DNA of 17,561 bases from Giardia intestinalis (GCA_000002435.2 AACB03000006.1), one strand, 5' to 3'; shown: positions 1 to 17,561, counted from the stretch's first letter. Numbers and translations: made by a program. The notes: a model not told the origin generated them from the letters alone.

Positions 1-837
1 AGGCCGTGGGGTCCTCGCAGGCCTTTGTGCACTTCACCGGATTGGTTCCCTCCTTGCGATAGTTGGACTTGCAATCGGTGCATGTAGGGGTTAGGCCGCT
101 GTTACATTGGGAGCACCCCTCGATGCCATTGTCGGCTTACTGTCGCAGGCGAAGCACTTACCAGCAGAGCCGGGTTGTTTCATGAAGAATCCAGGCTTGC
201 ATTTAGTGCACTGATCATTGCCAGCAGCAGAGCATGTAGCACAGTTGGCACCGCAAGCTGTGCATGTATCAGAACCAAAGTATCCGTCGAGGCAAGCTGA
301 GCAGGTCGGCTTGGCTCCGTTCTTCTTACACGTTTTACAATTAGCAATCCCCTTGTCGTTTGCTTCTGTTCCTGTTGTTGTATCACTGCATAATATGCAC
401 TTGGTGCTATCATCACTCAGAAAGTGGGATCCGTCGACGTTATCTGTTGCGCACCCAGCATCATCGACGCAAGTGGTTGTCCCATCCAGCTCTGTCTTCA
501 CCTTCTTATTGTTACAGGCGGTGCACTGGGGCTTGCTGACAGTCGTGTTGTACTCACACGCGGTGCAATCTGCTATACCAGACTCCTTGCATGTCATTGT
601 CATAGGGTCAGCATAAGTGTTTCCAGTGCATCCATCACTATTCACGCATGCATTATCCTTCAGGAACGTATTTCCCTTACAAGAGGTACACTGGGTCGCC
701 GATGTCTCACAGGTCAGACAAGTACCATCACATTTGGTACATGCCTGAGAGTCCATGTAGTACCCATCTTGACACTCGGTGCACGTGGCCGCTCCTGTAT
801 TGCCACCAGGTGCCGTGCACTTGAGACAGTTGGCCAC
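1..837 (-). CDS. VSP-type cysteine-rich surface protein cassette, partial (its N-terminal ~279 codons; the C-terminus runs off the window start)
   Basis: The protein [27 protein letters not shown]... is identical to the N-terminal half of the 10506..12098 protein, and this copy sits at the 11260-bp offset. It is CXXC-rich. The first codon is GTG, not ATG. A 1-nt T-run difference at ~137 (tt here versus ttt at 11397) closes the ORF at 91, either a real frameshift or a read error. Confidence 0.7.
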
Positions 838-989
838 TCCCTTGTTCCATTCGCTCCTGTGGCATCATGACAGAGTATGCACTCCCCACCAGGGGTCACC
901 TTGTCTGCCCCATTCTGGAATATGTACTGACTATCTGTATTACAAGCAGTGCATACTCCATTACTGGCCTGTGTGCATATCACACTCCA

Positions 990-1040
990 CTATCATACTA
1001 TCACCCTCTATCACACATTGTACAGCATTCACTACCCAAG
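990..1040 (-). repeat. Inter-cassette junction element (a CTATCAC/GTGATAG short-repeat block plus the polyA signal)
   Basis: + strand: ctatcatactatcaccctctatcacacattgtacagcattcactacccaag. It includes the rc of AGTGAAT at 1027..1033, 7 nt past the stop of 1041..2660. It ends in an in-frame TAG (cta at 990..992) followed by ..TGG AGT GTG ATA TGC, which starts the next cassette. Confidence 0.75.
1027..1033 (-). promoter_or_regulatory. Putative polyadenylation signal AGTGAAT (Giardia AGTRAAY consensus)
   Basis: attcact on the + strand, 7 nt 3' of the TGA of 1041..2660. The same heptamer recurs at a fixed distance after every cassette stop: 2842..2848, 4753..4759, 6679..6685, 8592..8598, 10406..10412, 12287..12293, 14102..14108 and 16013..16019. 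Confidence 0.7.
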
Positions 1041-2660
1041 TCACGCCTTCCCCCTGCACACGAACCACCAGCAGAGGAAGCCCACGAGGCCCCCCACGAC
1101 AGCGACCACAGCGACGGAGATCCCCGCGATGGCCCCCGTGGAGAGCCCGCTCCTGTTGGCGCCAGAGGACACACAGGAGGCCCCACTGCTGTCTAGGCTG
1201 AAGCCACTGTTGCACTCCTCACACACATCATCCACCACACAGCTCTTGCAATCACCCACAGAGCATGTCACACACCCACTGCCGTCCTTGTTGGGCACCT
1301 TACCACTGTCACAGGCAGTACACACAGCGGCAGCCATACCAACTGTTGTTAGAGCTGCTGGGGCTGTACACTGGGAGCAGCCATGTACCCCCACATATGC
1401 CTTAGCGGTACCTTGAGGATCTACTAGTGTGCCTAGGGGGTTACTACATGCCAACACGGACTGCTGAGCATTGGATGCCCCTGGTACCAGGAAGTACTTA
1501 TTATTCTCATTAACAGCGGTACAGACACCGTTGGCTGCTGTCTTGCACATATGTTGTCCAGGTGGACTCTGAGTGCTATAACAACCACCCATATATAAGA
1601 AATATCCTGTAGTACAAGACTCACAGACATGGTTGTTACAAGTATTACTTTGAGCCTCACTAGCACAGAGACCATCTATAGGATACTTACTGCTATCCCC
1701 ACAGTATGAACAGTAGTGCTTTGTGGTGCCCTGATCATCTATTATCATGGCATCACAAGCACCAGAGGTACCCCCACAGGCAGTATCATCTTCACATACC
1801 TTTGTACATGTAACAGGACTGGTACCACTCTGCTTGCGATAGTTCACCTTACAGTCAGTACACTTGAAAGTACTGGCCTCCATTGTGCATTGGGAGCACC
1901 CCTCGATGCCCCCATTGTTTGTGTCATCGCAGGCGAAGCATTCTCCAGGAGTGCTACTGACCTTCAGGAAGAACCCGGTCTTGCAGGTTTGGCATTTGGT
2001 CTTGTCAGCTTTTTCAGAACATGTGGCACAGTTAGCACCACAGGCCTCACACGTGGCGGCAGGGCCATTTCCTTCTTTGATATACCCTTCGAGGCATTCT
2101 ATGCATTCTGGTTTCTGACTTTGCTGCTTAGTACATGTCTTGCAGCCGGCAATGCCTTTGTTCTTTGGTTCTGAATCCGACGCTGCGGGATCACTGCACA
2201 AACGACACACGTTGTCTTCGGTCATAAAGAGACCGTTATCAGCTCCTTGACACCCGGCGTAGTCTTTTGTCACACAGGTCGAGGTCCCATCAAGGGTCGT
2301 CCTGGGGGTCTTATTGGTCCCGCAGTTGGTGCACCTTGGCTTCCCCGTGGCATCATTATATTCACATGCGGTGCACCCAGCTATGTCGGGATCACATGCC
2401 TTGCAGGTCCAGGTCTTCTTGTCTGCGTACTTATCAGCACCACATTCAGTAGCCTCTACACAAGTGTTACCATCCTTCAGGAACTTCCCCTCAACGCAGG
2501 CGGTACACTGAGTCGGAGTATCAGCTGAGCAAGCAGAGCAGCCGTCTCCGCACTTCACACATGCACTGTCCTTCGTAACGAACCCTGCTTGACACTCTGT
2601 ACACGTGGCCGGTCCGCTAGTGCCCGTGTGGGAGCATTCTGAGCATCCAGCGACTCCCAT
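1041..2660 (-). CDS. Variant-specific surface protein (VSP), 539 aa
   Basis: The ORF is full of CXXC motifs and contains the FLYMGGCY (GGCY) motif. Its C-terminal hydrophobic helix is [30 protein letters not shown], followed by TGA. The rc of AGTGAAT lies 7 nt beyond the stop at 1027..1033. The ATG at 2658..2660 is real, but in-frame VSP-like codons ([44 protein letters not shown]) continue 48 codons upstream to a TAG at 2805..2807 with no ATG. No signal peptide is present. Confidence 0.85.
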   Translation of the reverse strand: MGVAGCSECSHTGTSGPATCTECQAGFVTKDSACVKCGDGCSACSADTPTQCTACVEGKFLKDGNTCVEATECGADKYADKKTWTCKACDPDIAGCTACEYNDATGKPRCTNCGTNKTPRTTLDGTSTCVTKDYAGCQGADNGLFMTEDNVCRLCSDPAASDSEPKNKGIAGCKTCTKQQSQKPECIECLEGYIKEGNGPAATCEACGANCATCSEKADKTKCQTCKTGFFLKVSSTPGECFACDDTNNGGIEGCSQCTMEASTFKCTDCKVNYRKQSGTSPVTCTKVCEDDTACGGTSGACDAMIIDDQGTTKHYCSYCGDSSKYPIDGLCASEAQSNTCNNHVCESCTTGYFLYMGGCYSTQSPPGQHMCKTAANGVCTAVNENNKYFLVPGASNAQQSVLACSNPLGTLVDPQGTAKAYVGVHGCSQCTAPAALTTVGMAAAVCTACDSGKVPNKDGSGCVTCSVGDCKSCVVDDVCEECNSGFSLDSSGASCVSSGANRSGLSTGAIAGISVAVVAVVGGLVGFLCWWFVCRGKA

Positions 2661-2804
2661 GACCCCGTTTCTATCTGTCGTATCAGAGCACAGTATGCAC
2701 TCACTACCCTTCTCTGGTGTTGCAGCCGGGTTCTTGAACAGGCCGTTATCTGCCTTACAAGCAGTGCACAGTCCTCCCTCAGCCTTTGTGCATATCTCAC
2801 TCCA

Positions 2805-2855
2805 CTATCATACTATCACCCTCTATCACACATTGTACAGCATTCACTACCCAAG
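2805..2855 (-). repeat. Inter-cassette junction element
   Basis: It is the same conserved ~51-bp element. The polyA signal rc is at 2842..2848, 7 nt past the stop at 2856. The TAG is at 2805..2807. Confidence 0.75.
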
Positions 2856-4697
2856 TCACGCCTTCCCTCTACATATGAACCACCAGCAGAGGAAGCCGAC
2901 GAGGCCCCCCACGACAGCGATGACAGCGACGGAGATCCCTGCTATGGCACCAGTACTGAGGCCGCTCTTGTTGGTGCCAGAGGACGCACAGGAGGTCCCA
3001 CTGCTGTCAGGGCTGTATCCATCGTTGCACACACAGACAGAGTCGGTGTCAGTGGAGTTGCTGGGGCAGCTATCCACGCATGACTTCCTTCCAGGGCTCA
3101 CCTTCTTACCACTACTGCATGCCTCGCACATGTTGTCCATATCACAGTGCGAGCATCCACTAACGGTACATGGGAAGCACCCGCTCCCAGCCAGGTTGGG
3201 CTTGTTGTTGTTGGTACACGCTGTACACACAGCAGCAGTCATACCAGTCTCAGATGGAGCTGTTGGGGCCGTGCATGCTGAGCAGTTGAGTACCCCAACG
3301 TATGCCTTAGAGGTATCACCAGTGCCTACTAGTGTGCCAAGGGAGTTGCTACATGCTAATACAGACTGATTCTGATTGGTTGCCCCAGGGACTACGAAGT
3401 ACCTATTGTTGGCATTAACAGCAGTACAGACACCGTTGGCTGCTGTCTTGCACATATGTTGTCCAGGTACTGTATCAACCTTGTAACAACCTCCCATATA
3501 CAAGAAGTAGTTGTTAGTGCATTGTGTACATACACCTTGATCACATTGATTATTTGCTTTAGCACTATTACACTTCCCATCTATAGGATACGTATTAGCT
3601 TCTCCACAGTATGAGCAATAATGATGCTCTACACCCTTATCATCAATCACTATTGCATCGCAGGCACCAGAAGTTCCTCCACAGGCAGTATCATCTTCAC
3701 AGATCTTGGTGCATGTGACAGAGCCAGTACTGCCCTCCTTGCGATAGTTAGGCTTACAGTCAGTGCACTTGAAAGCACCGTTGTTAGAGCAGACACTGCA
3801 GCCTTCGCGACCCTTATCGTCTACGCTATCGCATGGGACGCACTTCTTCCCCTGTTGATCTGTAGTAGTTACTAAGAAGTATCCAGTCTTGCAGGTTTCA
3901 CACTTATTTGGATCACCAGCAACAGAGCATGTGGCACAGTTATCACCACACTTGTCTGTACATGTACTAGTACCACTATCAAAGAAGTATCCATCGAGAC
4001 AGGCTGAGCAGGTTGGATTGTCACTTCCTGTTTTCGTACATGTCTTGCAGTTGGCCTTTCCTTCGTTACCAAGAGTTGAATCTGTCACATCACTACAAAG
4101 AGCACACGTTTTGTCCTCCTTCATAAATAAGGCCTCGTCAGCGCCCTCGCATCCTTCAAGCGTCTTCGCCACGCAGGTCGATGTCCCGTCGAGGGCCGTC
4201 CTGGGGGTCTTATTGGTCCCGCAGTTAGTGCACTTCGGCTTCCCCGTGGCCTTGTCGAAGGAGCATGCCGTGCACTCTGCGTGTATCGTACTACATGCCT
4301 TGCATGTTCCCGACTCCGGGTCAGCATAAGTGTTTCCATCGCATCCAGTATCTTGTACACATTGATTACTCTTCAGGTACTTCCCCTCTGGGCACGATGT
4401 ACAATGATTCTGACCACTTCCATCGCAGGTCAGACAAGCTTCATTACATTTGACACATGTCTGAGAGTTCTTGTAGTATCCATCTTGGCACTCTGTACAC
4501 GTGGCAGGTCCTGGACTACTGTCTGACTTGGTACACTGTGCGCAGTTAGCCACCCCTGTATATCCATCTGCCCCATTGACATCATGACAGAGGATGCACT
4601 CACTACCAGGCTTCTGAGGTGTAACTGGGTTCTTGAACAGGCCGTTAGCTGTCTTACAAGCAGTGCACACTCCATCACTGGCTGCTGTGCATATCAC
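2856..4697 (-). CDS. Variant-specific surface protein (VSP), 613 codons. The ORF begins at GTG directly after the junction TAG, and the first in-frame ATG is ~190 codons in
   Basis: It has CXXC repeats, the GGCY motif, and the tail [17 protein letters not shown] followed by TGA. The first codon at 4695..4697 is cac on the + strand, which is GTG on the gene strand. The upstream in-frame sequence reads TAG TGG AGT (..*WS). The polyA signal is at 4753..4759 for the upstream neighbour and 2842..2848 for this gene. Confidence 0.8.
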   Translation of the reverse strand: MICTAASDGVCTACKTANGLFKNPVTPQKPGSECILCHDVNGADGYTGVANCAQCTKSDSSPGPATCTECQDGYYKNSQTCVKCNEACLTCDGSGQNHCTSCPEGKYLKSNQCVQDTGCDGNTYADPESGTCKACSTIHAECTACSFDKATGKPKCTNCGTNKTPRTALDGTSTCVAKTLEGCEGADEALFMKEDKTCALCSDVTDSTLGNEGKANCKTCTKTGSDNPTCSACLDGYFFDSGTSTCTDKCGDNCATCSVAGDPNKCETCKTGYFLVTTTDQQGKKCVPCDSVDDKGREGCSVCSNNGAFKCTDCKPNYRKEGSTGSVTCTKICEDDTACGGTSGACDAIVIDDKGVEHHYCSYCGEANTYPIDGKCNSAKANNQCDQGVCTQCTNNYFLYMGGCYKVDTVPGQHMCKTAANGVCTAVNANNRYFVVPGATNQNQSVLACSNSLGTLVGTGDTSKAYVGVLNCSACTAPTAPSETGMTAAVCTACTNNNKPNLAGSGCFPCTVSGCSHCDMDNMCEACSSGKKVSPGRKSCVDSCPSNSTDTDSVCVCNDGYSPDSSGTSCASSGTNKSGLSTGAIAGISVAVIAVVGGLVGFLCWWFICRGKA

Positions 4698-4703
4698 ACT
4701 CCA

Positions 4704-4766
4704 CTATCACACATTATCACCCACTATCACCTTCTATCACCCATTGTACAGCATTCACTACCCAAG
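4704..4766 (-). repeat. Inter-cassette junction element (a longer variant with extra CTATCAC-like units)
   Basis: + strand: ctatcacacattatcacccactatcaccttctatcacccattgtacagcattcactacccaag. The polyA signal rc is at 4753..4759. The TAG is at 4704..4706. Confidence 0.75.
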
Positions 4767-6497
4767 TCACGCCTTCCCCCTGCACACGAACCACCAGCAG
4801 AGGAAGCCCACGAGGCCCCCCACGACAGCGATGACAGCCACGGAGATCCCCGCGACGGCCCCCGTGGAGAGCCCGCTCCTGTTGGTGCCAGAGGACACAC
4901 ACATGCCATCCCTCGGGACATAGCCCTCCTCGCACTCCCCGCAGACGCCCTCTGCGCTGCACCGCATGCACCTCTCTATGTCACAGACAATGCACTGGGT
5001 GCCGTCCAGGCTGGGTCTCTGGTCTTTATTGGTACATGCCTCACACTTGTTGTCTGCGCTGCAGTGAGAGCAGCCCTGGGCCGGACACACATAGCAGGTG
5101 CTTCCAGCCATGTTGGGCTTCTTATTGTCCTCAGCACACACCTCGCACATCCCGTCGATGGCGCAGCTCTTGCACCCGCCGACCGCACACAGGGTGCACC
5201 CGCTGCCATCCTTGTTGGGCTTCTTCGTCTTGTCGCACGCACTACAGACCGCCGCGGCCATCGCATTGGCGGCTGGCGCCTGCGGGGCCGCGCACGCCGT
5301 GCAGTCTAGCACGCCGACGTACGCCTTGTCGCCCGCGGTCGCTCCCACAGGGTTGCCACAGGCAAGCACGGACTGCTGAGCAGCAGAGTCCCCAGGAATC
5401 TTGAAGTAGCGCCCGACCGGTGTGGTGCAGAACCCACTTGGAGCCGCAGAGCACATGAGGTTGCCAGGAGCCTTCGACACATCATAGCAACCACCCATAT
5501 AGAGGAAGTAGTTGTTGGTGCACCGCGTACATACGCCATCGGCGCAGGTATTACCTGCAAGTGCATTGGTGCACTTCCCATTAATAGGGCCATAGCCGGC
5601 GCCAACACACTTTGAACAGTAAGAGAGCATGCTGCCGTCGTTGCCGACCACGATGGCGTCGCAGGCCCCTGCTGTCCCTCCACATGCAGTCTCATCTTCA
5701 CAGGTCTTTGTACATGTGAGGTCGCTAGGTTCTCCGCTGGGTCTGTAGTTGGGCTTACATTCAGTGCATTTGAGGGACCCCACGCCGCCTGTGCACTCGG
5801 CACAGCCTGGAATCCCACTTGTCTCGTCATCACAGAGAACGCATGTCTTAGGCGGGCCATCCTTAAGGAAGTACCCCGGCATGCATCTTGTACATGTGTT
5901 GATTTGACCCGCTGTTCCGCACTCTGCGCAGTTTCCTGTGCAGGCCTCGCAGGCGTTTCCGTTGACTTTATACCCGTCGACACAAGCCTCGCAGGTGCCT
6001 TTTGCGGTGCACAGCTTGCAGTTCTGGACTCCGCCCTTACCATTGTCGCCGCACTGCACGCACTTCGAGGCGTCGTAGAAGTGCGTCTTGCCCACTTTGC
6101 ACTCGGCCTCATCAACACAGGTCGTTGTCCCATCCAGCTCGTCTCTGACCGTCTTACTACCGCAGTCGGTGCACTTCGGCTTTCCCGTGGCGTCGTCGTA
6201 TGCACACGCGGTGCATCCTTGTATCTCACTGCAGGCCTTACAGGTCCAGGTCTTCTTGTCCGCATAGTTACCATTGTCACATCCACCAGCATCTACACAA
6301 GTGTTACCATCCTTCAGGTACTTCCCCTCAACGCAGGCGGTACACTGAGTCGGAGTATCAGCTGAGCAAGCAGAGCAGCCGTCTCCGCACTTCACACATG
6401 CACTGTCCTTCGTAACGAACCCTGCTTGACACTCTGTACACGTGGCCGGTCCGCTAGTGCCCGTGTGGGAGCATTCTGAGCATCCAGCGACTCCCAT
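4767..6497 (-). CDS. Variant-specific surface protein (VSP), 576 aa
   Basis: Its N-terminal 58 aa are identical to those of the 1041..2660 protein and the middle is divergent. It carries the CRGKA tail. The same 48-codon ATG-less in-frame extension continues upstream to 6642..6644. The polyA signal is at 4753..4759. Confidence 0.85.
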   Translation of the reverse strand: MGVAGCSECSHTGTSGPATCTECQAGFVTKDSACVKCGDGCSACSADTPTQCTACVEGKYLKDGNTCVDAGGCDNGNYADKKTWTCKACSEIQGCTACAYDDATGKPKCTDCGSKTVRDELDGTTTCVDEAECKVGKTHFYDASKCVQCGDNGKGGVQNCKLCTAKGTCEACVDGYKVNGNACEACTGNCAECGTAGQINTCTRCMPGYFLKDGPPKTCVLCDDETSGIPGCAECTGGVGSLKCTECKPNYRPSGEPSDLTCTKTCEDETACGGTAGACDAIVVGNDGSMLSYCSKCVGAGYGPINGKCTNALAGNTCADGVCTRCTNNYFLYMGGCYDVSKAPGNLMCSAAPSGFCTTPVGRYFKIPGDSAAQQSVLACGNPVGATAGDKAYVGVLDCTACAAPQAPAANAMAAAVCSACDKTKKPNKDGSGCTLCAVGGCKSCAIDGMCEVCAEDNKKPNMAGSTCYVCPAQGCSHCSADNKCEACTNKDQRPSLDGTQCIVCDIERCMRCSAEGVCGECEEGYVPRDGMCVSSGTNRSGLSTGAVAGISVAVIAVVGGLVGFLCWWFVCRGKA

Positions 6498-6641
6498 GAC
6501 CCCGTTTCTATCTGTCGTATCAGAGCACAGTATGCACTCACTACCCTTCTCTGGTGTTGCATCAGGGTTCTTGAACAGGCCGTTAGCTGTCTTACAAGCA
6601 GTGCACAGTCCTCCCTCAGCCTTTGTGCATATCTCACTCCA

Positions 6642-6692
6642 CTATCATACTATCACACACTATCACCCATTGTATAGCATTCACTACCCAAG
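6642..6692 (-). repeat. Inter-cassette junction element
   Basis: + strand: ctatcatactatcacacactatcacccattgtatagcattcactacccaag. The polyA signal rc is at 6679..6685. Confidence 0.75.
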
Positions 6693-8540
6693 TCACGCCT
6701 TCCCCCTGCACACGAACCACCAGCAGAGGAAGCCCACGAGGCCCCCCACGACAGCGATGACAGCCACGGAGATCCCTGCTATGGCACCAGTACTGAGGCC
6801 GCTTCTGTTGCCCCCGCTGGGCTTGGTGGACACGCACGCCTCACCCTCCAGCCTGTAGTCGTCCCCACACTGGCCGCACTTGTTCTCCTCGCTGCACCTG
6901 ACGCACCCGTCGATATTGCAGGCGATGCACTTCGTTCCGTCTGTGTTCGGCCTCTGGTCTTTACTGGTACAGGCCTCGCACTTACCGCCTGCTCCACAGT
7001 GCGAGCATCCGTCAACGGTACATGCGAAGCACCCGCTCCCAGCCAGGTTGGGCTTGTTGTTGTTGGTACACGCTGTACACACAGCAGCAGTCATACCAGT
7101 CTCAGACAGAGCTGTTGGGGCCGTGCATGCCGAACAGCCATCTACCCCCACATATGCCTTAGAGGTATCACCAGTGCCTACTAGTGTGCCAAGGGAGTTG
7201 CTACATGCCAATACAGACTGATTCTGATTGGTTGCCCCAGGGACTATGAAGTACCTATTGTTGGCATTAACAGCGGTACAGACACCGTTGGCTGCTGTCT
7301 TGCACATATGTTGTCCAGGTACTGTATCAACCTTGTAACAACCTCCCATATACAAGAAGTAGTTGTTAGTGCATTGTGTACATACACCTTGATCACATTG
7401 ATTATTTGCTTTAGCACTATTACACTTCCCATCTATAGGATACGTATTAGCTTCTCCACAGTATGAGCAATAATGATGCTCTACACCCTTATCATCAATC
7501 ACTATTGCATCGCAGGCACCAGAAGTTCCTCCACAGGCAGTATCATCTTCACAGATCTTGGTGCATGTGACAGAGCCAGTACTGCCCTCCTTGCGATAGT
7601 TAGGCTTACAGTCAGTGCACTTGAAAGCACCGTTGTTAGAGCAGACACTGCAGCCTTCGCGACCCTTATCGTCTACGCTATCGCATGGGACGCACTTCTT
7701 CCCCTGTTGATCTGTAGTAGTTACTAAGAAGTATCCAGTCTTGCAGGTTTCACACTTATTTGGATCACCAGCAACAGAGCATGTGGCACAGTTATCACCA
7801 CACTTGTCTGTACATGTACTAGTACCACTATCAAAGAAGTATCCATCGAGACAGGCTGAGCAGGTTGGATTGTCACTTCCTGTTTTCGTACATGTCTTGC
7901 AGTTGGCCTTTCCTTCGTTACCAAGAGTTGAATCTGTCACATCACTACAAAGAGCACACGTTTTGTCCTCCTTCATAAATAAGGCCTCGTCAGCGCCCTC
8001 GCATCCTTCAAGCGTCTTCGCCACGCAGGTCGATGTCCCGTCGAGGGCCGTCCTGGGGGTCTTATTGGTCCCGCAGTTAGTGCACTTCGGCTTCCCCGTG
8101 GCCTTGTCGAAGGAGCATGCCGTGCACTCTGCGTGTATCGTACTACATGCCTTGCATGTTCCCGACTCCGGGTCAGCATACTTATCATTACCACAGCTAT
8201 CAGTACATTGATTCCCATTGAGGTACTTCCCCTCTGGACACGATGTGCACTGGGTCGCCGATGTCTCACAGGTGGCACAGTTCCCCTCGCATGGCTTACA
8301 AAGCTTGTTGTTTAGGAAGTACCCCTCTTGACAGGTATTACACGTGGCAGGTCCTGCATTCCCTGGTGCCGTACACTTGAGACAGTTGGCCACTCCCGTA
8401 TATCCATTCGCTCCCTTGATATCAGAGCACAAGATGCACTCCCCACCAGGAGTCACCTTGTCTGCCCTGTTCTGGAATATGTACTTGTTATCTGTCTTAC
8501 AAGCAGTGCACAGTCCATTACTGGCCTTTGTACATATCAC
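6693..8540 (-). CDS. Variant-specific surface protein (VSP), 615 codons, a mosaic paralogue
   Basis: The central ~350 aa (…CKACSTIHAECTACSFDKATGKPKCTNCGTNKTPRTALDGTSTCVAK… through …AYVGV) are essentially identical to 2856..4697. The C-terminal ~100 aa match the C-terminus of 10506..12098. The N-terminus is unique. It carries the CRGKA tail. The first codon is GTG, preceded by an in-frame TAG at 8547..8549. Confidence 0.8.
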   Translation of the reverse strand: MICTKASNGLCTACKTDNKYIFQNRADKVTPGGECILCSDIKGANGYTGVANCLKCTAPGNAGPATCNTCQEGYFLNNKLCKPCEGNCATCETSATQCTSCPEGKYLNGNQCTDSCGNDKYADPESGTCKACSTIHAECTACSFDKATGKPKCTNCGTNKTPRTALDGTSTCVAKTLEGCEGADEALFMKEDKTCALCSDVTDSTLGNEGKANCKTCTKTGSDNPTCSACLDGYFFDSGTSTCTDKCGDNCATCSVAGDPNKCETCKTGYFLVTTTDQQGKKCVPCDSVDDKGREGCSVCSNNGAFKCTDCKPNYRKEGSTGSVTCTKICEDDTACGGTSGACDAIVIDDKGVEHHYCSYCGEANTYPIDGKCNSAKANNQCDQGVCTQCTNNYFLYMGGCYKVDTVPGQHMCKTAANGVCTAVNANNRYFIVPGATNQNQSVLACSNSLGTLVGTGDTSKAYVGVDGCSACTAPTALSETGMTAAVCTACTNNNKPNLAGSGCFACTVDGCSHCGAGGKCEACTSKDQRPNTDGTKCIACNIDGCVRCSEENKCGQCGDDYRLEGEACVSTKPSGGNRSGLSTGAIAGISVAVIAVVGGLVGFLCWWFVCRGKA

Positions 8541-10224: not shown

Positions 10225-10368
10225 GACCCCGTTTCTATCTGTCGTATCAGAGCACAGTATGCACTCACTACCCTTCTCTGGTGTTGCAGCCGGGTTCTTG
10301 AACAGGCCGTTATCTGCCTTACAAGCAGTGCACAGTCCTCCCTCAGCCTTTGTGCATATCTCACTCCA

Positions 10369-10419
10369 CTATCATACTATCACCCTCTATCACACATTGT
10401 ACAGCATTCACTACCCAAG
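10369..10419 (-). repeat. Inter-cassette junction element
   Basis: Same as 2805..2855. The polyA signal rc is at 10406..10412. The expected stop of the 10506..12098 cassette is 10420..10422. Confidence 0.75.
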
Positions 10420-10505
10420 TCACGCCTTCCCCCTGCACACGAACCACCAGCAGAGGAAGCCCACGAGGCCCCCCACGACAGCGATGACAGCCACGGAGAT
10501 CCCTG

Positions 10506-12098
10506 CTATGGCACCAGTACTGAGGCCGCTTCTGTTGCCCCGCTGGGCTTGGTGGACACGCACGCCTCACCCTCCAGCCTGTAGTCGTCCCCACACTGGC
10601 CGCACTTGTTCTCCTCGCTGCACCTGACGCACCCGTCGATATTGCAGGCGATGCACTTCGTTCCGTCTGTGTTCGGCCTCTGGTCTTTACTGGTACAGGC
10701 CTCGCACTTATCGCCTGCTCCACAGTGCGAGCATCCGTCAACGGTACATGCGAAGCACCCGCTCCCAGCCAGGTTGGGCTTGTTGTTGTTGGTACACGCT
10801 GTGCACGTGGCGGCAGTCATGCCACCATCAGATGGAGCTGCTGGGGCTGTACACTGTGAACAGTTGAGTACCCCCACGTATGCCTTAGCAGTATCACCAG
10901 TGCCTACTAGTGTGCCTAGGGGGTTCTCGCAGGCCAGGACAGACTGATCAGTATTGGATGCCCCCGGGACCAGGAAGTACCGGCCGTTCTCGCTGGGGGC
11001 GGTGCACCTCCCTCCCTCGGCAGTCTTGCACATGTGGCTGCCAGGAGCCTTCGACACATCATAGCAGCCGCCCATGTACAGGAAGAACCCGGCAGCACAC
11101 CGGGTGCAGACGCCATTGGCACAGGTGTTGTCACCCTTAGTTCCTGTGCAGATCCCATCGATGGGGAACGTGGCGGGGTCTCCGCACAGCGAGCAGTACT
11201 GGGAGAACGCCCCGGCGCTGTCAACGACGACCGCCCCGCAGGCCCCAGACGTCCCCCCGCAGGCCGTGGGGTCCTCGCAGGCCTTTGTGCACTTCACCGG
11301 ATTGGTTCCCTCCTTGCGATAGTTGGACTTGCAATCGGTGCATGTAGGGGTTAGGCCGCTGTTACATTGGGAGCACCCCTCGATGCCATTGTCGGCTTTA
11401 CTGTCGCAGGCGAAGCACTTACCAGCAGAGCCGGGTTGTTTCATGAAGAATCCAGGCTTGCATTTAGTGCACTGATCATTGCCAGCAGCAGAGCATGTAG
11501 CACAGTTGGCACCGCAAGCTGTGCATGTATCAGAACCAAAGTATCCGTCGAGGCAAGCTGAGCAGGTCGGCTTGGCTCCGTTCTTCTTACACGTTTTACA
11601 ATTAGCAATCCCCTTGTCGTTTGCTTCTGTTCCTGTTGTTGTATCACTGCATAATATGCACTTGGTGCTATCATCACTCAGAAAGTGGGATCCGTCGACG
11701 TTATCTGTTGCGCACCCAGCATCATCGACGCAAGTGGTTGTCCCATCCAGCTCTGTCTTCACCTTCTTATTGTTACAGGCGGTGCACTGGGGCTTGCTGA
11801 CAGTCGTGTTGTACTCACACGCGGTGCAATCTGCTATACCAGACTCCTTGCATGTCATTGTCATAGGGTCAGCATAAGTGTTTCCAGTGCATCCATCACT
11901 ATTCACGCATGCATTATCCTTCAGGAACGTATTTCCCTTACAAGAGGTACACTGGGTCGCCGATGTCTCACAGGTCAGACAAGTACCATCACATTTGGTA
12001 CATGCCTGAGAGTCCATGTAGTACCCATCTTGACACTCGGTGCACGTGGCCGCTCCTGTATTGCCACCAGGTGCCGTGCACTTGAGACAGTTGGCCAC
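10506..12098 (-). CDS. VSP paralogue ([12 protein letters not shown]...) with a frameshift just before the transmembrane domain. The expected end is at 10420
   Basis: It has CXXC repeats, the GGCY motif, and C-terminal modules shared with 6693..8540. At 10538..10541 there are 4 C where 5 C stand at the homologous 6811..6815. The shift gives ...[14 protein letters not shown] instead of [17 protein letters not shown]...CRGKA. The first codon at 12096..12098 is GTG. An additional N-terminal frameshift is present in the upstream piece 12099..12243. Confidence 0.7.
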
Positions 12099-12249
12099 TC
12101 CCTTGTTCCATTCGCTCCTGTGGCATCATGACAGAGATGCACTCCCCACCAGGGGTCACCTTGTCTGCCCCATTCTGGAATATGTACTGACTATCTGTAT
12201 TACAAGCAGTGCATACTCCATTACTGGCCTGTGTGCATATCACACTCCA

Positions 12250-12300
12250 CTATCATACTATCACCCTCTATCACACATTGTACAGCATTCACTACCCAAG
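12250..12300 (-). repeat. Inter-cassette junction element
   Basis: A copy of 990..1040 at the +11260 offset. The polyA signal rc is at 12287..12293. Confidence 0.75.
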
Positions 12301-13920
12301 TCACGCCTTCCCCCTGCACACGAACCACCAGCAGAGGAAGCCCACGAGGCCCCCCACGACAGCGACCACAGCGACGGAGATCCCCGCGATGGCCCCCGTG
12401 GAGAGCCCGCTCCTGTTGGCGCCAGAGGACACACAGGAGGCCCCACTGCTGTCTAGGCTGAAGCCACTGTTGCACTCCTCACACACATCATCCACCACAC
12501 AGCTCTTGCAATCACCCACAGAGCATGTCACACACCCACTGCCGTCCTTGTTGGGCACCTTACCACTGTCACAGGCAGTACACACAGCGGCAGCCATACC
12601 AACTGTTGTTAGAGCTGCTGGGGCTGTACACTGGGAGCAGCCATGTACCCCCACATATGCCTTAGCGGTACCTTGAGGATCTACTAGTGTGCCTAGGGGG
12701 TTACTACATGCCAACACGGACTGCTGAGCATTGGATGCCCCTGGTACCAGGAAGTACTTATTATTCTCATTAACAGCGGTACAGACACCGTTGGCTGCTG
12801 TCTTGCACATATGTTGTCCAGGTGGACTCTGAGTGCTATAACAACCACCCATATATAAGAAATATCCTGTAGTACAAGACTCACAGACATGGTTGTTACA
12901 AGTATTACTTTGAGCCTCACTAGCACAGAGACCATCTATAGGATACTTACTGCTATCCCCACAGTATGAACAGTAGTGCTTTGTGGTGCCCTGATCATCT
13001 ATTATCATGGCATCACAAGCACCAGAGGTACCCCCACAGGCAGTATCATCTTCACATACCTTTGTACATGTAACAGGACTGGTACCACTCTGCTTGCGAT
13101 AGTTCACCTTACAGTCAGTACACTTGAAAGTACTGGCCTCCATTGTGCATTGGGAGCACCCCTCGATGCCCCCATTGTTTGTGTCATCGCAGGCGAAGCA
13201 TTCTCCAGGAGTGCTACTGACCTTCAGGAAGAACCCGGTCTTGCAGGTTTGGCATTTGGTCTTGTCAGCTTTTTCAGAACATGTGGCACAGTTAGCACCA
13301 CAGGCCTCACACGTGGCGGCAGGGCCATTTCCTTCTTTGATATACCCTTCGAGGCATTCTATGCATTCTGGTTTCTGACTTTGCTGCTTAGTACATGTCT
13401 TGCAGCCGGCAATGCCTTTGTTCTTTGGTTCTGAATCCGACGCTGCGGGATCACTGCACAAACGACACACGTTGTCTTCGGTCATAAAGAGACCGTTATC
13501 AGCTCCTTGACACCCGGCGTAGTCTTTTGTCACACAGGTCGAGGTCCCATCAAGGGTCGTCCTGGGGGTCTTATTGGTCCCGCAGTTGGTGCACCTTGGC
13601 TTCCCCGTGGCATCATTATATTCACATGCGGTGCACCCAGCTATGTCGGGATCACATGCCTTGCAGGTCCAGGTCTTCTTGTCTGCGTACTTATCAGCAC
13701 CACATTCAGTAGCCTCTACACAAGTGTTACCATCCTTCAGGAACTTCCCCTCAACGCAGGCGGTACACTGAGTCGGAGTATCAGCTGAGCAAGCAGAGCA
13801 GCCGTCTCCGCACTTCACACATGCACTGTCCTTCGTAACGAACCCTGCTTGACACTCTGTACACGTGGCCGGTCCGCTAGTGCCCGTGTGGGAGCATTCT
13901 GAGCATCCAGCGACTCCCAT
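12301..13920 (-). CDS. Variant-specific surface protein (VSP), 539 aa, a second copy of 1041..2660
   Basis: The protein is identical to the 1041..2660 product and lies at the +11260 offset. It has the CRGKA tail. The polyA signal is at 12287..12293. Confidence 0.85.
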   Translation of the reverse strand: MGVAGCSECSHTGTSGPATCTECQAGFVTKDSACVKCGDGCSACSADTPTQCTACVEGKFLKDGNTCVEATECGADKYADKKTWTCKACDPDIAGCTACEYNDATGKPRCTNCGTNKTPRTTLDGTSTCVTKDYAGCQGADNGLFMTEDNVCRLCSDPAASDSEPKNKGIAGCKTCTKQQSQKPECIECLEGYIKEGNGPAATCEACGANCATCSEKADKTKCQTCKTGFFLKVSSTPGECFACDDTNNGGIEGCSQCTMEASTFKCTDCKVNYRKQSGTSPVTCTKVCEDDTACGGTSGACDAMIIDDQGTTKHYCSYCGDSSKYPIDGLCASEAQSNTCNNHVCESCTTGYFLYMGGCYSTQSPPGQHMCKTAANGVCTAVNENNKYFLVPGASNAQQSVLACSNPLGTLVDPQGTAKAYVGVHGCSQCTAPAALTTVGMAAAVCTACDSGKVPNKDGSGCVTCSVGDCKSCVVDDVCEECNSGFSLDSSGASCVSSGANRSGLSTGAIAGISVAVVAVVGGLVGFLCWWFVCRGKA

Positions 13921-14064
13921 GACCCCGTTTCTATCTGTCGTATCAGAGCACAGTATGCACTCACTACCCTTCTCTGGTGTTGCAGCCGGGTTCTTGAACA
14001 GGCCGTTATCTGCCTTACAAGCAGTGCACAGTCCTCCCTCAGCCTTTGTGCATATCTCACTCCA

Positions 14065-14115
14065 CTATCATACTATCACCCTCTATCACACATTGTACAG
14101 CATTCACTACCCAAG
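14065..14115 (-). repeat. Inter-cassette junction element
   Basis: A copy of 2805..2855. The polyA signal rc is at 14102..14108. Confidence 0.75.
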
Positions 14116-15957
14116 TCACGCCTTCCCTCTACATATGAACCACCAGCAGAGGAAGCCGACGAGGCCCCCCACGACAGCGATGACAGCGACGGAGATCCCT
14201 GCTATGGCACCAGTACTGAGGCCGCTCTTGTTGGTGCCAGAGGACGCACAGGAGGTCCCACTGCTGTCAGGGCTGTATCCATCGTTGCACACACAGACAG
14301 AGTCGGTGTCAGTGGAGTTGCTGGGGCAGCTATCCACGCATGACTTCCTTCCAGGGCTCACCTTCTTACCACTACTGCATGCCTCGCACATGTTGTCCAT
14401 ATCACAGTGCGAGCATCCACTAACGGTACATGGGAAGCACCCGCTCCCAGCCAGGTTGGGCTTGTTGTTGTTGGTACACGCTGTACACACAGCAGCAGTC
14501 ATACCAGTCTCAGATGGAGCTGTTGGGGCCGTGCATGCTGAGCAGTTGAGTACCCCAACGTATGCCTTAGAGGTATCACCAGTGCCTACTAGTGTGCCAA
14601 GGGAGTTGCTACATGCTAATACAGACTGATTCTGATTGGTTGCCCCAGGGACTACGAAGTACCTATTGTTGGCATTAACAGCAGTACAGACACCGTTGGC
14701 TGCTGTCTTGCACATATGTTGTCCAGGTACTGTATCAACCTTGTAACAACCTCCCATATACAAGAAGTAGTTGTTAGTGCATTGTGTACATACACCTTGA
14801 TCACATTGATTATTTGCTTTAGCACTATTACACTTCCCATCTATAGGATACGTATTAGCTTCTCCACAGTATGAGCAATAATGATGCTCTACACCCTTAT
14901 CATCAATCACTATTGCATCGCAGGCACCAGAAGTTCCTCCACAGGCAGTATCATCTTCACAGATCTTGGTGCATGTGACAGAGCCAGTACTGCCCTCCTT
15001 GCGATAGTTAGGCTTACAGTCAGTGCACTTGAAAGCACCGTTGTTAGAGCAGACACTGCAGCCTTCGCGACCCTTATCGTCTACGCTATCGCATGGGACG
15101 CACTTCTTCCCCTGTTGATCTGTAGTAGTTACTAAGAAGTATCCAGTCTTGCAGGTTTCACACTTATTTGGATCACCAGCAACAGAGCATGTGGCACAGT
15201 TATCACCACACTTGTCTGTACATGTACTAGTACCACTATCAAAGAAGTATCCATCGAGACAGGCTGAGCAGGTTGGATTGTCACTTCCTGTTTTCGTACA
15301 TGTCTTGCAGTTGGCCTTTCCTTCGTTACCAAGAGTTGAATCTGTCACATCACTACAAAGAGCACACGTTTTGTCCTCCTTCATAAATAAGGCCTCGTCA
15401 GCGCCCTCGCATCCTTCAAGCGTCTTCGCCACGCAGGTCGATGTCCCGTCGAGGGCCGTCCTGGGGGTCTTATTGGTCCCGCAGTTAGTGCACTTCGGCT
15501 TCCCCGTGGCCTTGTCGAAGGAGCATGCCGTGCACTCTGCGTGTATCGTACTACATGCCTTGCATGTTCCCGACTCCGGGTCAGCATAAGTGTTTCCATC
15601 GCATCCAGTATCTTGTACACATTGATTACTCTTCAGGTACTTCCCCTCTGGGCACGATGTACAATGATTCTGACCACTTCCATCGCAGGTCAGACAAGCT
15701 TCATTACATTTGACACATGTCTGAGAGTTCTTGTAGTATCCATCTTGGCACTCTGTACACGTGGCAGGTCCTGGACTACTGTCTGACTTGGTACACTGTG
15801 CGCAGTTAGCCACCCCTGTATATCCATCTGCCCCATTGACATCATGACAGAGGATGCACTCACTACCAGGCTTCTGAGGTGTAACTGGGTTCTTGAACAG
15901 GCCGTTAGCTGTCTTACAAGCAGTGCACACTCCATCACTGGCTGCTGTGCATATCAC
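14116..15957 (-). CDS. Variant-specific surface protein (VSP), 613 codons, a second copy of 2856..4697
   Basis: The protein is identical to the 2856..4697 product and lies at the +11260 offset. It has a GTG first codon and the CRGKA tail. The polyA signal is at 14102..14108. Confidence 0.8.
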   Translation of the reverse strand: MICTAASDGVCTACKTANGLFKNPVTPQKPGSECILCHDVNGADGYTGVANCAQCTKSDSSPGPATCTECQDGYYKNSQTCVKCNEACLTCDGSGQNHCTSCPEGKYLKSNQCVQDTGCDGNTYADPESGTCKACSTIHAECTACSFDKATGKPKCTNCGTNKTPRTALDGTSTCVAKTLEGCEGADEALFMKEDKTCALCSDVTDSTLGNEGKANCKTCTKTGSDNPTCSACLDGYFFDSGTSTCTDKCGDNCATCSVAGDPNKCETCKTGYFLVTTTDQQGKKCVPCDSVDDKGREGCSVCSNNGAFKCTDCKPNYRKEGSTGSVTCTKICEDDTACGGTSGACDAIVIDDKGVEHHYCSYCGEANTYPIDGKCNSAKANNQCDQGVCTQCTNNYFLYMGGCYKVDTVPGQHMCKTAANGVCTAVNANNRYFVVPGATNQNQSVLACSNSLGTLVGTGDTSKAYVGVLNCSACTAPTAPSETGMTAAVCTACTNNNKPNLAGSGCFPCTVSGCSHCDMDNMCEACSSGKKVSPGRKSCVDSCPSNSTDTDSVCVCNDGYSPDSSGTSCASSGTNKSGLSTGAIAGISVAVIAVVGGLVGFLCWWFICRGKA

Positions 15958-15963
15958 ACTCCA

Positions 15964-16026
15964 CTATCACACATTATCACCCACTATCACCTTCTATCAC
16001 CCATTGTACAGCATTCACTACCCAAG
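15964..16026 (-). repeat. Inter-cassette junction element (long variant)
   Basis: A copy of 4704..4766. The polyA signal rc is at 16013..16019. Confidence 0.75.
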
Positions 16027-17561
16027 TCACGCCTTCCCCCTGCACACGAACCACCAGCAGAGGAAGCCCACGAGGCCCCCCACGACAGCGATGACAGCCA
16101 CGGAGATCCCCGCGACGGCCCCGTGGAGAGCCCGCTCCTGTTGGTGCCAGAGGACACACACATGCCATCCCTCGGGACATAGCCCTCCTCGCACTCCCCG
16201 CAGACGCCCTCTGCGCTGCACCGCATGCACCTCTCTATGTCACAGACAATGCACTGGGTGCCGTCCAGGCTGGGTCTCTGGTCTTTATTGGTACATGCCT
16301 CACACTTGTTGTCTGCGCTGCAGTGAGAGCAGCCCTGGGCCGGACACACATAGCAGGTGCTTCCAGCCATGTTGGGCTTCTTATTGTCCTCAGCACACAC
16401 CTCGCACATCCCGTCGATGGCGCAGCTCTTGCACCCGCGACCGCACACAGGTGCACCCGCTGCCATCCTGTGGGCTTCTTCGTCTTGTCGCACGCACTAC
16501 AGACCGCCGCGGCCATCGCATTGGCGGGCTGGCGCCTGCGGGCCGCGCACGCCCGTGCATCTAGCACGCCGACGTACGCCTTGTCGCCCGCGGTCGCTCC
16601 CACAGGGTTGCCACAGGCAGCACGGACTGCTGAGCAGCAAGTCCCCAGAATCTGAAGTACGCCCGACGGTGTGGTGCAGAACCCACTGGAGCCGCAGAGC
16701 ACATGAGGTTGCCAGAGCCTTCGACACATCATAGCAACCACCCATATAGAGGAAGTAGTTGTTGGTGCACCGCGTACATACGCCATCGGCGCAGGTATTA
16801 CCTGCAAGTGCATTGTGCACTTTCCCATTAATAGGCCCATAGCCGGCGCCAACACACTTTGAACAGTAAGAGAGCATGCTGCCGTCGTGCCGACCACGAT
16901 GGCGTCGCAGGCCCCTGCTGTCCCCACATGCAGTCTCATCTTCACAGGTCTTTGTACATGTGAGGTCGCTAGGTTCTCCGCTGGTCTGTAGTTGGGCTTA
17001 CATTCAGTGCATTTGAGGGACCCCACGCCGCCTGTGCACTCGGCACAGCCTGGAATCCCACTTGTCTCGTCATCACAGAGAAACGCATGTCTTAGGCGGG
17101 CCATCCTTAAGGAAGTACCCGGCATGCATCTTGTACATGTGTTGATTTGACCCGCTGTTCCGCACTCTGCGCAGTTTCCTGTGCAGGCCTCGCAGGCGTT
17201 TCCGTTGACTTTATTACCCGTCGACACAAGCCTCGCAGGTGCCTTTTGCGGTGCACAGCTTGCAGTTCTGGACTCCGCCCTTACCATTGTCGCCGCACTG
17301 CACGCACTTGAGGCGTCGTAGAAGTGCGTCTTGCCCACTTTGCACTCGGCCTCATCAACACAGGTCGTTGTCCCATCCAGCTCGTCTCTGACCGTTTACT
17401 ACCGCAGTCGGTGCACTTCGGCTTTCCCGTGGCGTCGTCGTATGCACACGCCGGTGCATCCTTGTATCTCACTGCAGGCCTTACAGGTCCAGGTCTTCTT
17501 GTCCGCATAGTTACCTTGTCACATCCACCAGCATCTACACAAGTGTTACCATCCTTCAGGT
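16027..17561 (-). pseudogene. Degraded or low-quality second copy of the 4767..6497 VSP, partial at the window end
   Basis: 16027..16230 encodes an intact ...[24 protein letters not shown] tail. Upstream of that, the copy differs from 4975..6301 almost only by many 1-3 nt deletions, with no obvious substitutions. For example, 16441..16500 versus 5181..5244 lacks c, g and tgt. The reading frame hops between three frames in ORFs 16235..17338, 16497..16877 and 17281..17508. Confidence 0.6.

Follow-up and report, generated by a model that had tools for sequence, protein, structure and literature searches.

A minus-strand linear array of start-less VSP cassettes in Giardia intestinalis, probably a silent reservoir of antigen segments

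The stretch of DNA analysed here (the window, 17,561 nt) carries VSP-like coding sequence on its minus strand only. Nine CRGKA-TGA tails were located, the lowest plus-strand coordinates of their CRGKA codons being 1044, 2859, 4770, 6696, 8609, 10423, 12304, 14119 and 16030, which places neighbouring tails 1814-1926 nt apart, and a tenth unit (U10) is truncated at the window start. The ten units comprise six distinct cassettes. The features are as follows:

U1, 16027..17561, minus strand: 5' end truncated at the window end; a copy of U7 full of single-base indels; CRGKA codons 16030-16044, stop 16027-16029
U2, 14116..16026, minus strand: 1911 nt; identical to U8; 63-nt spacer at 15964-16026; 615-codon open frame WSVICTAASDG...CRGKA with codon 194 as first in-frame ATG
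U3, 12301..14115, minus strand: 1815 nt; identical to U9; spacer at 14065-14115
U4, 10420..12300, minus strand: 1881 nt; frameshifted ψVSP
U5, 8606..10419, minus strand: 1814 nt; diverged 3' end
U6, 6693..8605, minus strand: 1913 nt; 617-codon open frame to CRGKA; spacer at 8547-8605
U7, 4767..6692, minus strand: 1926 nt; 624-codon open frame to CRGKA
U8, 2856..4766, minus strand: 1911 nt; 615-codon open frame to CRGKA; spacer at 4704-4766
U9, 1041..2855, minus strand: 1815 nt; 587-codon open frame to CRGKA
U10, 1..1040, minus strand: the 5' 1040 nt of a U4 copy; 3' end truncated at the window start
Representative junction, 2805..2858, minus strand: stop codon TGA, then the extended VSP poly(A) signal, spacer repeats and next cassette
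Equivalent junctions, minus strand: just below 16029, 14118, 12303, 10422, 8608, 6695, 4769 and 1043
Higher-order repeat copy a, 1..6319: period of 11,260 bp, corresponding to six cassettes (U4 to U9)
Higher-order repeat copy b, 11261..17561: compared base by base with copy a

Each full-length cassette possesses 25-32 CXXC motifs and one GGCY motif, the exceptions being the truncated U1 and U10, and a hydrophobic C-terminal transmembrane helix is present. The GC content of U7 (~0.59) is higher than that of the other cassettes. An earlier note on this DNA had described at least ten same-strand VSP genes and had ascribed CXXC, GGCY, the helix and the CRGKA tail to every long ORF. The minus-strand VSP units and the first three of these features were recovered, but the units amount to six distinct cassettes which are start-less and not complete genes, and CRGKA is in frame in only six of the ten long ORFs, that is in four of the six distinct sequences. 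Frameshifted, with the tail residing in another frame, are the ORFs 8518-10224, 10506-12098 and 91-837 as well as the fragments at 15987-17338. In the two distinct cassettes with out-of-frame CRGKA the displacement is brought about by single-G losses: U4 lost a G from a G5 run at ~10542, so that its tail (10423-10437) and the main ORF 10506-12098 lie in different frames, and U5 misses one G from a G6 run in the transmembrane segment, leaving CRGKA (8609-8623) out of frame. U4 also possesses a frameshift near the N-terminus, common to U10, and an extra T loss at ~12136. U1, which aligns to 4767-6319, carries ~30 indels in 16118-17515, whereby its reading frame is split into at least four pieces. 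Those frameshifts which lie near a window end or within a G run are probably sequencing noise, and hence pseudogene calls resting on them are unsafe.

The 3' ends and junctions are built uniformly. At the representative junction (2805..2858) the poly(A) signal ACTTGGGTAGTGAATGC begins at the A of TGA and is followed by ATGCTGTAC and by GTGATAG-type repeats with several in-frame stops, after which the next cassette opens. The extended poly(A) consensus ACUUAGRUAGURAAYRY, expected no more than a few nt away from the stop, was found in all nine units, each time with one mismatch (16 of 17 positions) and with the third base of the stop codon as its first position. AGTGAAT begins 7 nt past the stop in all nine units, just as the earlier note had it, and the stop-filled spacer between each stop and the next VSP-like open frame measures 51-63 nt, in agreement with the head-to-tail packing at ~50-65 bp described there. 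A 29-nt junction motif was observed eight times, zero occurrences being expected from shuffles, and an independent short-read ENA contig possesses the identical junction architecture next to a cassette which is only 61% identical. Dense packing of this kind is already known (Adam et al. 2010, PMC2996952). The spacers described here contain in-frame stops, whereas in other arrays of the WB isolate their homologue is open and had been taken as an N-terminus, 'MLYSDSDS...', in the annotation.

At their 5' ends the cassettes are incomplete. An ATG at the 5' end of the cassette frame was found in none of the units; the frame opens with 'WSEICT' or 'WSVICT' immediately past the stops of the spacer, its first Met follows at codon 37-194 depending on the cassette, and the short frames opened by ATGs in the spacer end at a stop after 4-5 codons. 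With hydropathy as a proxy, neither the cassette start nor the first in-frame Met showed a signal peptide, the N-terminal Kyte-Doolittle maximum (12-aa window) being 0.5-1.3 for the cassettes as compared to 2.0-2.5 for the signal peptides of complete VSPs. The PyAATGTT initiator, which was reported at the start codon of 135 of 136 complete WB VSPs (bioRxiv 10.1101/2022.03.07.483299), has zero matches on both strands of the whole window. In most cases residue 2 of the cassette aligns with residue ~82-106 of complete VSPs, and the N-terminal ~80-105 residues with which a complete VSP begins are absent from each unit. As start codon, signal peptide and initiator are absent, the units are to be classed as ψVSP cassettes and not as antigen genes that can be expressed, and no unit is able to make a surface VSP on its own.

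The assignment to the VSP family, and with it the diplomonad identity which the earlier note had proposed, was confirmed by Pfam matches, the CRGKA tail, the extended poly(A) signal, best hits in WB and the identity to a deposited VSP. All six ORFs tested match PF03302 with 48.6-146.8 bits (E = 1e-13 to 1e-42), the gathering threshold being 31.4 bits, and the best protein matches are VSPs of G. intestinalis WB (assemblage A). AAN52102.1, 'VSP S7 [Giardia intestinalis]', is matched with 100% identity by the ORF 1041-2660, which is U9 read from its first in-frame ATG, and U3 likewise corresponds to GenBank VSP S7 when counted from its own first in-frame ATG. This entry was deposited as a protein starting from an internal Met and may derive from cDNA. 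The C-terminal 427 aa of U6 are 98.8% identical to WB XP_001705784.1. As judged by these matches, the source is Giardia intestinalis, assemblage A, WB-like.

The BLASTP, HMM and CRGKA checks yielded VSP matches and CRGKA tails, with no HCMP or non-diplomonad outcome seen. A different cysteine-rich family (HCMP/CRMP) as the identity of the units, or a different species as their source (for instance Giardia muris with its telomeric ψVSP arrays), has next to no probability. It is true that a CXXC-rich ectodomain and a VSP-like transmembrane helix are common to HCMPs, and that VSP arrays devoid of signal peptides are a hallmark of G. muris chromosome ends. HCMPs were nevertheless rejected, as their tails are longer than the exact CRGKA plus stop found here and all nine units carry the extended poly(A) signal specific to VSPs and pVSPs; G. 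muris was rejected as its tail is GCRGK instead of CRGKA, as the 120 best matches include no protein of G. muris and as one ORF equals a G. intestinalis entry.

Comparison of the cassettes with each other revealed perfectly identical tracts which stop abruptly at flanks of 55-80% identity. Such tracts are found between U5 and U9 (527 and 942 nt), U6 and U8 (905 nt), U4 and U6 (169 and 122 nt) and between U5 or U9 and U7 (242 nt); the first 1470 nt of U5 and U9 are identical except for one mismatch, and the first ~400 nt of U7 possess 96-100% identity to U5 and U9. With their identical tracts of 242-1470 nt and the abrupt ends of these, the cassettes are clearly mosaic. dN/dS is 0.1-0.55 in 13 of 15 cassette pairs, these being the pairs for which it was estimable, and Cys columns are ~89-99% conserved between cassettes, which together show constraint at the protein level on the sequence content. 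A dN/dS below 1 could also be a legacy of once-functional ancestors and not the result of selection on donors.

On a larger scale the window holds ~1.56 copies of the higher-order unit. Its two copies (1-6319 and 11261-17561) are 99.48% identical with 31 gap openings, clean substitutions being almost absent and the differences being mostly single-base indels which, by their appearance, look like long-read errors. Around 30 of them gather in the last 1.45 kb of the window, and elsewhere in the overlap only two isolated single-base indels are found, at 136/11397 and 876/12136.

Considering the anatomy together with the literature, the window is in good likelihood a segment of a G. intestinalis VSP linear array made up of start-less ψVSP cassettes, probably serving as a silent reservoir of segments. 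The unit of ~1.8-1.9 kb consists of a VSP ectodomain starting ~80-105 residues in, followed by the transmembrane helix, CRGKA, the stop and the extended poly(A) signal; such units are linked by the stop-filled spacers of 51-63 nt, and six of them form the 11,260-bp higher-order unit. The cassettes are probably transcriptionally silent and probably act as a donor reservoir of VSP segments for segmental gene conversion. VSP switching in Giardia is thought to be epigenetic or post-transcriptional.

Two other readings of the units have to be weighed against this one. They might be ordinary VSP genes, each with transcription from its short spacer and a surface antigen as its product, an idea which the earlier note implied and which finds some backing in the frames of 587-624 codons that are intact in four of the six distinct cassettes, in the complete C-terminal anchor and poly(A) signal of every unit and in the GenBank deposition of one cassette as the protein VSP S7. 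Yet no cassette frame possesses a 5' ATG, spacer ATGs stop after 4-5 codons, neither cassette start nor first Met offers a signal peptide, PyAATGTT is absent from the window and the cassettes are short of the ~80-105 residues at the N-terminus of complete VSPs, so that this anatomy largely refutes expression of the units as genes, which is accordingly regarded as very improbable. Alternatively, the array might consist of decaying, discarded VSP duplicates without a donor role, an option which was explicitly left open by Adam et al. 2010 (PMC2996952) and with which the frameshifts in U4, U5 and the U1 copy and the lack of a start in every unit are in line. These frameshifts, however, are mostly single-base losses in G runs or at window ends and may be sequencing errors, four cassettes kept stop-free frames of ~600 codons, the Cys columns are conserved and dN/dS stays below 1 wherever estimable, and the long tracts of perfect identity show recent or ongoing exchange instead of passive decay. 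Mere debris is therefore considered possible but unlikely.

The 11.26-kb higher-order duplication may be an assembly artefact, i.e., an over-extended or wrapped contig built from noisy long reads, with the six cassettes being present once in the genome. The near lack of clean substitutions and the crowding of ~30 indels into the final 1.45 kb, a pattern familiar from unpolished contig ends, are suggestive of this, as is the literature according to which unassembled WB contigs hold VSP pseudogenes only. On the other hand, where the two copies join (U4 after U3, near ~12300) the spacer junction is normal and does not differ in form from the others, the copy-specific indel at 12136 resides mid-window in non-homopolymer sequence, and even a wrap-around needs reads joining U9-type to U4-type cassettes, which would render the unit tandem or circular. 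Taken together, an artefact is given a rather low probability. Also of low probability, and suggested tentatively, is that the 11.26-kb repeat is real and tandemly amplified, perhaps in many copies or as an extrachromosomal circle, its copies being held nearly identical by very recent unequal crossing-over or gene conversion.

The class of element to which the window belongs has been described before. Over half of the WB vsp genes were reported to reside in linear arrays with a mean gap of 60 bp (range: overlapping to 241 bp), whose downstream members are without initiator and were hypothesised to be recombination cassettes, their silence being likewise hypothesised (Adam et al. 2010, BMC Genomics 11:424, PMC2996952), and WB arrays were later re-annotated as arrays of start-less ψVSPs (Xu et al. 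2020, Sci Data 7:38, PMC7000408). The first member of published arrays possesses a normal upstream region, initiator and signal peptide (PMC2996952; PMC7000408); the window is without this array head, the place for an expressible first member. Like the window, the WB arrays lie on one strand, head to tail and with ~60-bp gaps, their downstream members are devoid of initiator or proper start with the CRGKA and poly(A) 3' end being conserved, closely related pairs exist inside the arrays and recombination is in evidence; the arrays are frequently found on small or unplaced contigs. The cassettes of the window are identical or ~99% identical to S7 and WB XP_001705784.1. No difference in kind was identified, and what goes beyond these published descriptions of WB arrays is the 11,260-bp six-cassette repeat with near-identical copies and the in-frame stops of the spacers.

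The ψVSP arrays of G. muris, which are transcriptionally silent and for which a reservoir role in recombination and gene conversion was proposed (Xu et al. 2020, Microb Genom, PMC7641422), likewise consist of tandem VSP copies without signal peptides. They differ in their GCRGK tail and their telomere-adjacent position, the window possessing CRGKA tails and no TAGGG telomere repeat. Complete G. intestinalis VSPs (the 720-aa WB VSP P0003, VSP1267, TSA417) share with the cassettes the CXXC ectodomain, GGCY, the transmembrane domain, the CRGKA tail and the extended poly(A) signal, and have long protein stretches in common with U9/S7. Unlike the cassettes, they possess a signal peptide (MFQLIPLFVASALMA... 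or MLLIA...), the first N-terminal module of ~80-105 residues and PyAATGTT, and are usually isolated or arranged as inverted pairs in gene-poor regions. An analogy was drawn (PMC7641422) to the large VSG arrays of Trypanosoma brucei and MSG arrays of Pneumocystis, whose silent, often incomplete antigen genes are donors for mosaic conversion; their protein families are unrelated to VSP, and in Giardia the use of arrays as donors is proposed only.

The window is thus a well-resolved case of a published class, the ψVSP linear arrays, and no new kind of element. It shows array members which are N-terminally truncated and start-less, which conserved their 3' processing signals and which exchanged long identical segments. 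Its units should not be tallied as functional VSP genes, and six of them are distinct, not ten. If real, the higher-order repeat would add modest detail on array expansion; were it indeed amplified, it would constitute a homogenising, copy-number-variable 'satellite' of antigen cassettes and a tractable site at which VSP segmental recombination could be watched in real time, with S7 as a possible donor already seen as a VSP clone. VSP arrays have a bearing on the way in which the antigen repertoire of Giardia is put together and renewed.

The long VSP-like frames of the ORF listing (VSP, variant-specific surface protein) all locate to the minus strand of the window, and a six-frame search of the window identified nine CRGKA tails followed by TGA, likewise exclusively on that strand.

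CRGKA codon ends in the window, from the six-frame search (+ coordinates)
1044, minus strand, CRGKA end
2859, minus strand, CRGKA end
4770, minus strand, CRGKA end
6696, minus strand, CRGKA end
8609, minus strand, CRGKA end
10423, minus strand, CRGKA end
12304, minus strand, CRGKA end
14119, minus strand, CRGKA end
16030, minus strand, CRGKA end

These tails are separated by 1815, 1911, 1926, 1913, 1814, 1881, 1815 and 1911 nt, and a tenth unit (1-1040) is truncated by the window start; the units are designated U1 to U10, with U1 at the high-coordinate end. All six ORF products tested matched the Giardia VSP family (Pfam PF03302, E = 1e-13 to 1e-42), which is the outcome the earlier note had expected from a profile comparison. 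Each full-length cassette possesses 25-32 CXXC motifs and one GGCY motif, the C-terminal segment is strongly hydrophobic, and a 29-nt junction motif occurs eight times in the window versus zero occurrences expected from shuffles. The core claim of a VSP array is hence real, but two of its particulars require correction: CRGKA, assigned to every long ORF, is in frame in six of the ten long ORFs and resides in another frame in U4 (10420-12300), U5 (8606-10419), U1 (16027-17561) and U10, and the "at least ten tandem VSP genes" are indeed ten units, yet these reduce to six distinct cassettes, none of which is a complete gene. The window thus is a Giardia VSP array made of start-less ψVSP cassettes (pseudo-VSPs without signal peptide or proper start codon), whereby the six distinct cassettes are arranged in a higher-order repeat.

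Next to the VSP frames, antisense ORFs reaching 254 codons were found on the plus strand (e.g., 2605-3369, 4584-5309 and 13865-14629), which most likely just follow from the Cys/Thr/Gly-rich codon usage of the VSPs; a Pfam search with the long plus-strand and alternative-frame ORFs gave no match. U7 (4767-6692) and its copy (16027-17561) have a GC content of ~0.59-0.61 versus ~0.47-0.54 in their neighbours, and U7 holds a 328-codon alternative-frame ORF (5306-6292) without Pfam match, suggesting that cassettes from differing VSP clades or origins adjoin within one array. Six of the eight tail-to-tail distances are multiples of three, meaning that successive cassettes stay in phase across the stop-filled spacer, which may be trivial; the exceptions are 1814 nt (U5, coinciding with a single-G loss) and 1913 nt (U6, with a spacer of different length). 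Rfam families, short tandem repeats and telomere repeats were not found in the window.

Read 5' to 3' on the minus strand, the junction between cassettes consists of CRGKA plus TGA, the extended poly(A) signal, ATGCTGTAC and GTGATAG-like repeats. The signal (ACTTGGGTAGTGAATGC) begins at the A of the stop codon and agrees at 16 of 17 positions with the consensus used (ACUUAGRUAGURAAYRY, specific to VSPs and pVSPs), an extended signal reported to be common to both (2022 preprint, bioRxiv 10.1101/2022.03.07.483299). Behind every stop codon CT(T/C)(G/A)GGT is followed by AGTGAAT, hence the AGTGAAT described in the earlier note at 7 nt after the stop was confirmed. The subsequent spacer repeats hold several in-frame stops.

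Spacer examples in the window
2805-2855, minus strand, degenerate GTGATAG-type repeat
4704-4766, minus strand, degenerate GTGATAG-type repeat
8547-8605, minus strand, degenerate GTGATAG-type repeat

The dense packing noticed earlier holds true, as the open frame resumes abruptly 51-63 nt past the preceding stop with W-S-(E/V)-I-C-T-(K/Q/A)-A-...-C-T-A-C. No ATG is present at the 5' start of the cassette open frames, the small ATGs of the spacer reach a stop after 4-5 codons, and the first in-frame Met is found at codon 37-49 (U4, U5, U7, U9) or 191-194 (U6, U8). Using Kyte-Doolittle hydropathy in a 12-residue window as a proxy for signal peptides, no hydrophobic stretch was identified after either the cassette start or the first Met (maximum 0.5-1.3), whereas the signal peptides of six complete VSPs reach 2.0-2.5. 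PyAATGTT, the VSP initiator or Kozak-like element carried by 135 of 136 complete WB VSPs (bioRxiv 10.1101/2022.03.07.483299), has zero matches on both strands of the whole window. In most alignments cassette residue 2 corresponds to residue ~100-106 of complete VSPs (deeper in a few longer proteins); in a VSP from an independent contig whose N-terminus was under-called, the equivalent position is residue 82. This offset of ~82-106 residues implies that the cassettes are devoid of the signal peptide and of the entire first module, which in complete VSPs terminates with ...FMGGCY..PGSEICT. The cassettes alone were shown to be unable to encode a secreted VSP.

The possibility that 'GCACACAG' at the 5' edge of U4 and U10 serves as splice acceptor for a signal-peptide exon, joined by cis- or trans-splicing, was rejected: it is homologous to the coding stretch 'ICT(A/Q)A' found in complete VSPs, is restricted to one cassette type and has no counterpart to the branch point of the Giardia intron motif. 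The homologous spacer of other WB arrays keeps an open frame from an ATG inside the poly(A) signal (AGTGAATG) and was called as N-terminus 'MLYSDSDSAMWCGGDSDS...LFMGGCY..' in the 2007 annotation (P0001, P0004, P0012, P0121); in the window the same embedded ATG yields MLYN(V/G) and then stops.

Concerning the source, the best matches are VSPs of G. lamblia ATCC 50803/WB, followed by P15 and other G. duodenalis, with 67% identity at full length and 87% in a partial alignment, so that the attribution to Giardia made earlier was correct. ORF 1041-2660 is exactly AAN52102.1 ('variant-specific surface protein S7 [Giardia intestinalis]') and clusters with two WB proteins at >=90%, while U6 shares 98.8% identity over 427 aa with WB XP_001705784.1. 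Judged from these protein identities, the source is an assemblage A, WB-like Giardia. G. muris was excluded, as none of its proteins is among the top matches; G. muris VSPs end in GCRGK (PMC7641422), in contrast to the CRGKA of the window cassettes. AAN52102.1 represents the cassette 1041-2660 / 12301-13920 from its first internal Met, and 'VSP S6' (Q8I8W3) likewise begins at an internal Met (MTEDNVC...), hence both deposited 'VSPs' resemble array cassettes devoid of a signal peptide; no source publication for the GenBank entries S7 and S6 was found in the literature.

An independent short-read ENA contig (ERZ27316335, k141_9213, 2407 nt) carries a 609-codon cassette without signal peptide that is only 61% identical, and on either side it is bordered by a junction built as in the window, with tail, poly(A) signal, GTGATAG spacer and 'ICTAASNG'. 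This type of junction is hence a conserved trait rather than an artefact of the window's assembly, and the same array family is present with diverged cassettes in another Giardia sample. Another VSP, located on an ENA contig of 132 kb, proved to be a complete gene standing alone among housekeeping genes and serves as contrast only. The spacer motif had 0 matches in JGI metagenomes.

Comparison of the window with itself revealed 1-6319 and 11261-17561 to be 99.48% identical with 31 gap openings, whereby clean substitutions are almost absent and the few small multi-base differences resemble indel realignments. As a consequence, only U4-U9 are distinct, and they add up to a unit of 11,260 bp present in ~1.56 copies.

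Distinct cassette lengths (sum 11,260 bp)
U4, minus strand, 1881 nt
U5, minus strand, 1814 nt
U6, minus strand, 1913 nt
U7, minus strand, 1926 nt
U8, minus strand, 1911 nt
U9, minus strand, 1815 nt

If real, this repeat points to a block duplication in the very recent past; alternatively, it may have been produced by wrap-around during assembly. The inter-copy indels are mostly single-base and ~30 of them fall in 16118-17515, the final 1.45 kb of the window, a clustering characteristic of insufficiently polished ends of long-read contigs; isolated ones occur at 136/11397 (near the window start) and 876/12136 (mid-window). The C-terminal frameshifts of U4 and U5 each stem from one G missing in a G5 or G6 run when compared with a paralogue that is otherwise identical, and these mid-window frameshifts may be sequencing errors.

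G-run losses, from comparison with the paralogue
~10542, minus strand, G lost in U4
~8665, minus strand, G lost in U5

Since the indels resemble long-read consensus error, the apparent frameshifts in U1, U4, U5 and U10 are perhaps not biological. No mention of a comparable repeat unit spanning several cassettes was found in the cited VSP-array literature.

The array as such belongs to a class known since 2010, when more than half of the WB vsp repertoire was reported to reside in 'linear arrays' with on average 60 bp between members, often on small contigs and with ten members in the longest one known (Adam et al. 2010, PMC2996952). In downstream members the initiator is never present and the start codon sometimes absent, and they were hypothesised to be either unexpressed recombination cassettes or discarded copies (Adam et al. 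2010, PMC2996952). Re-annotation of WB counted 133 VSPs and 208 ψVSPs (Xu et al. 2020, PMC7000408), and unassembled WB contigs were found to hold VSP pseudogenes only (2022 preprint, bioRxiv 10.1101/2022.03.07.483299). The start-less cassettes of the window share this published architecture with the linear and ψVSP arrays of G. intestinalis, the latter being cited as previously described in the work on G. muris, where such arrays are also likened to the silent donor arrays of trypanosomes and Pneumocystis (Xu et al. 2020, PMC7641422).

The cassettes were shown to be mosaics of one another: U5 equals U9 over 1470 nt with one mismatch, after which identity is 85-94%, U6 and U8 are fully identical over a 905-nt tract whose flanks reach 58-81% identity, the last ~290 nt are common to U4 and U6, and the first ~400 nt of U7 are common to U5 and U9. 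Sharp transitions of this kind between 100% and ~55% identity are the trace left by segmental gene conversion or by unequal crossing-over. Protein-level constraint on cassette divergence is apparent from dN/dS of roughly 0.1-0.55 among pairs with unsaturated dS, these being rough figures as dS is saturated for most pairs and two pairs are undefined, and from Cys columns that are ~89-99% conserved; stop-free frames of ~600 codons are kept in four of the six distinct cassettes. That the cassettes are decaying debris, in line with the discarded copies of the 2010 hypothesis, appears rather unlikely, while a role as donor reservoir is tentatively favoured. The cassettes are probably silent and would constitute a store of segments to be copied into expressible VSP genes, and the array would grow as blocks of several cassettes, in this case the 11.26-kb unit, are duplicated.
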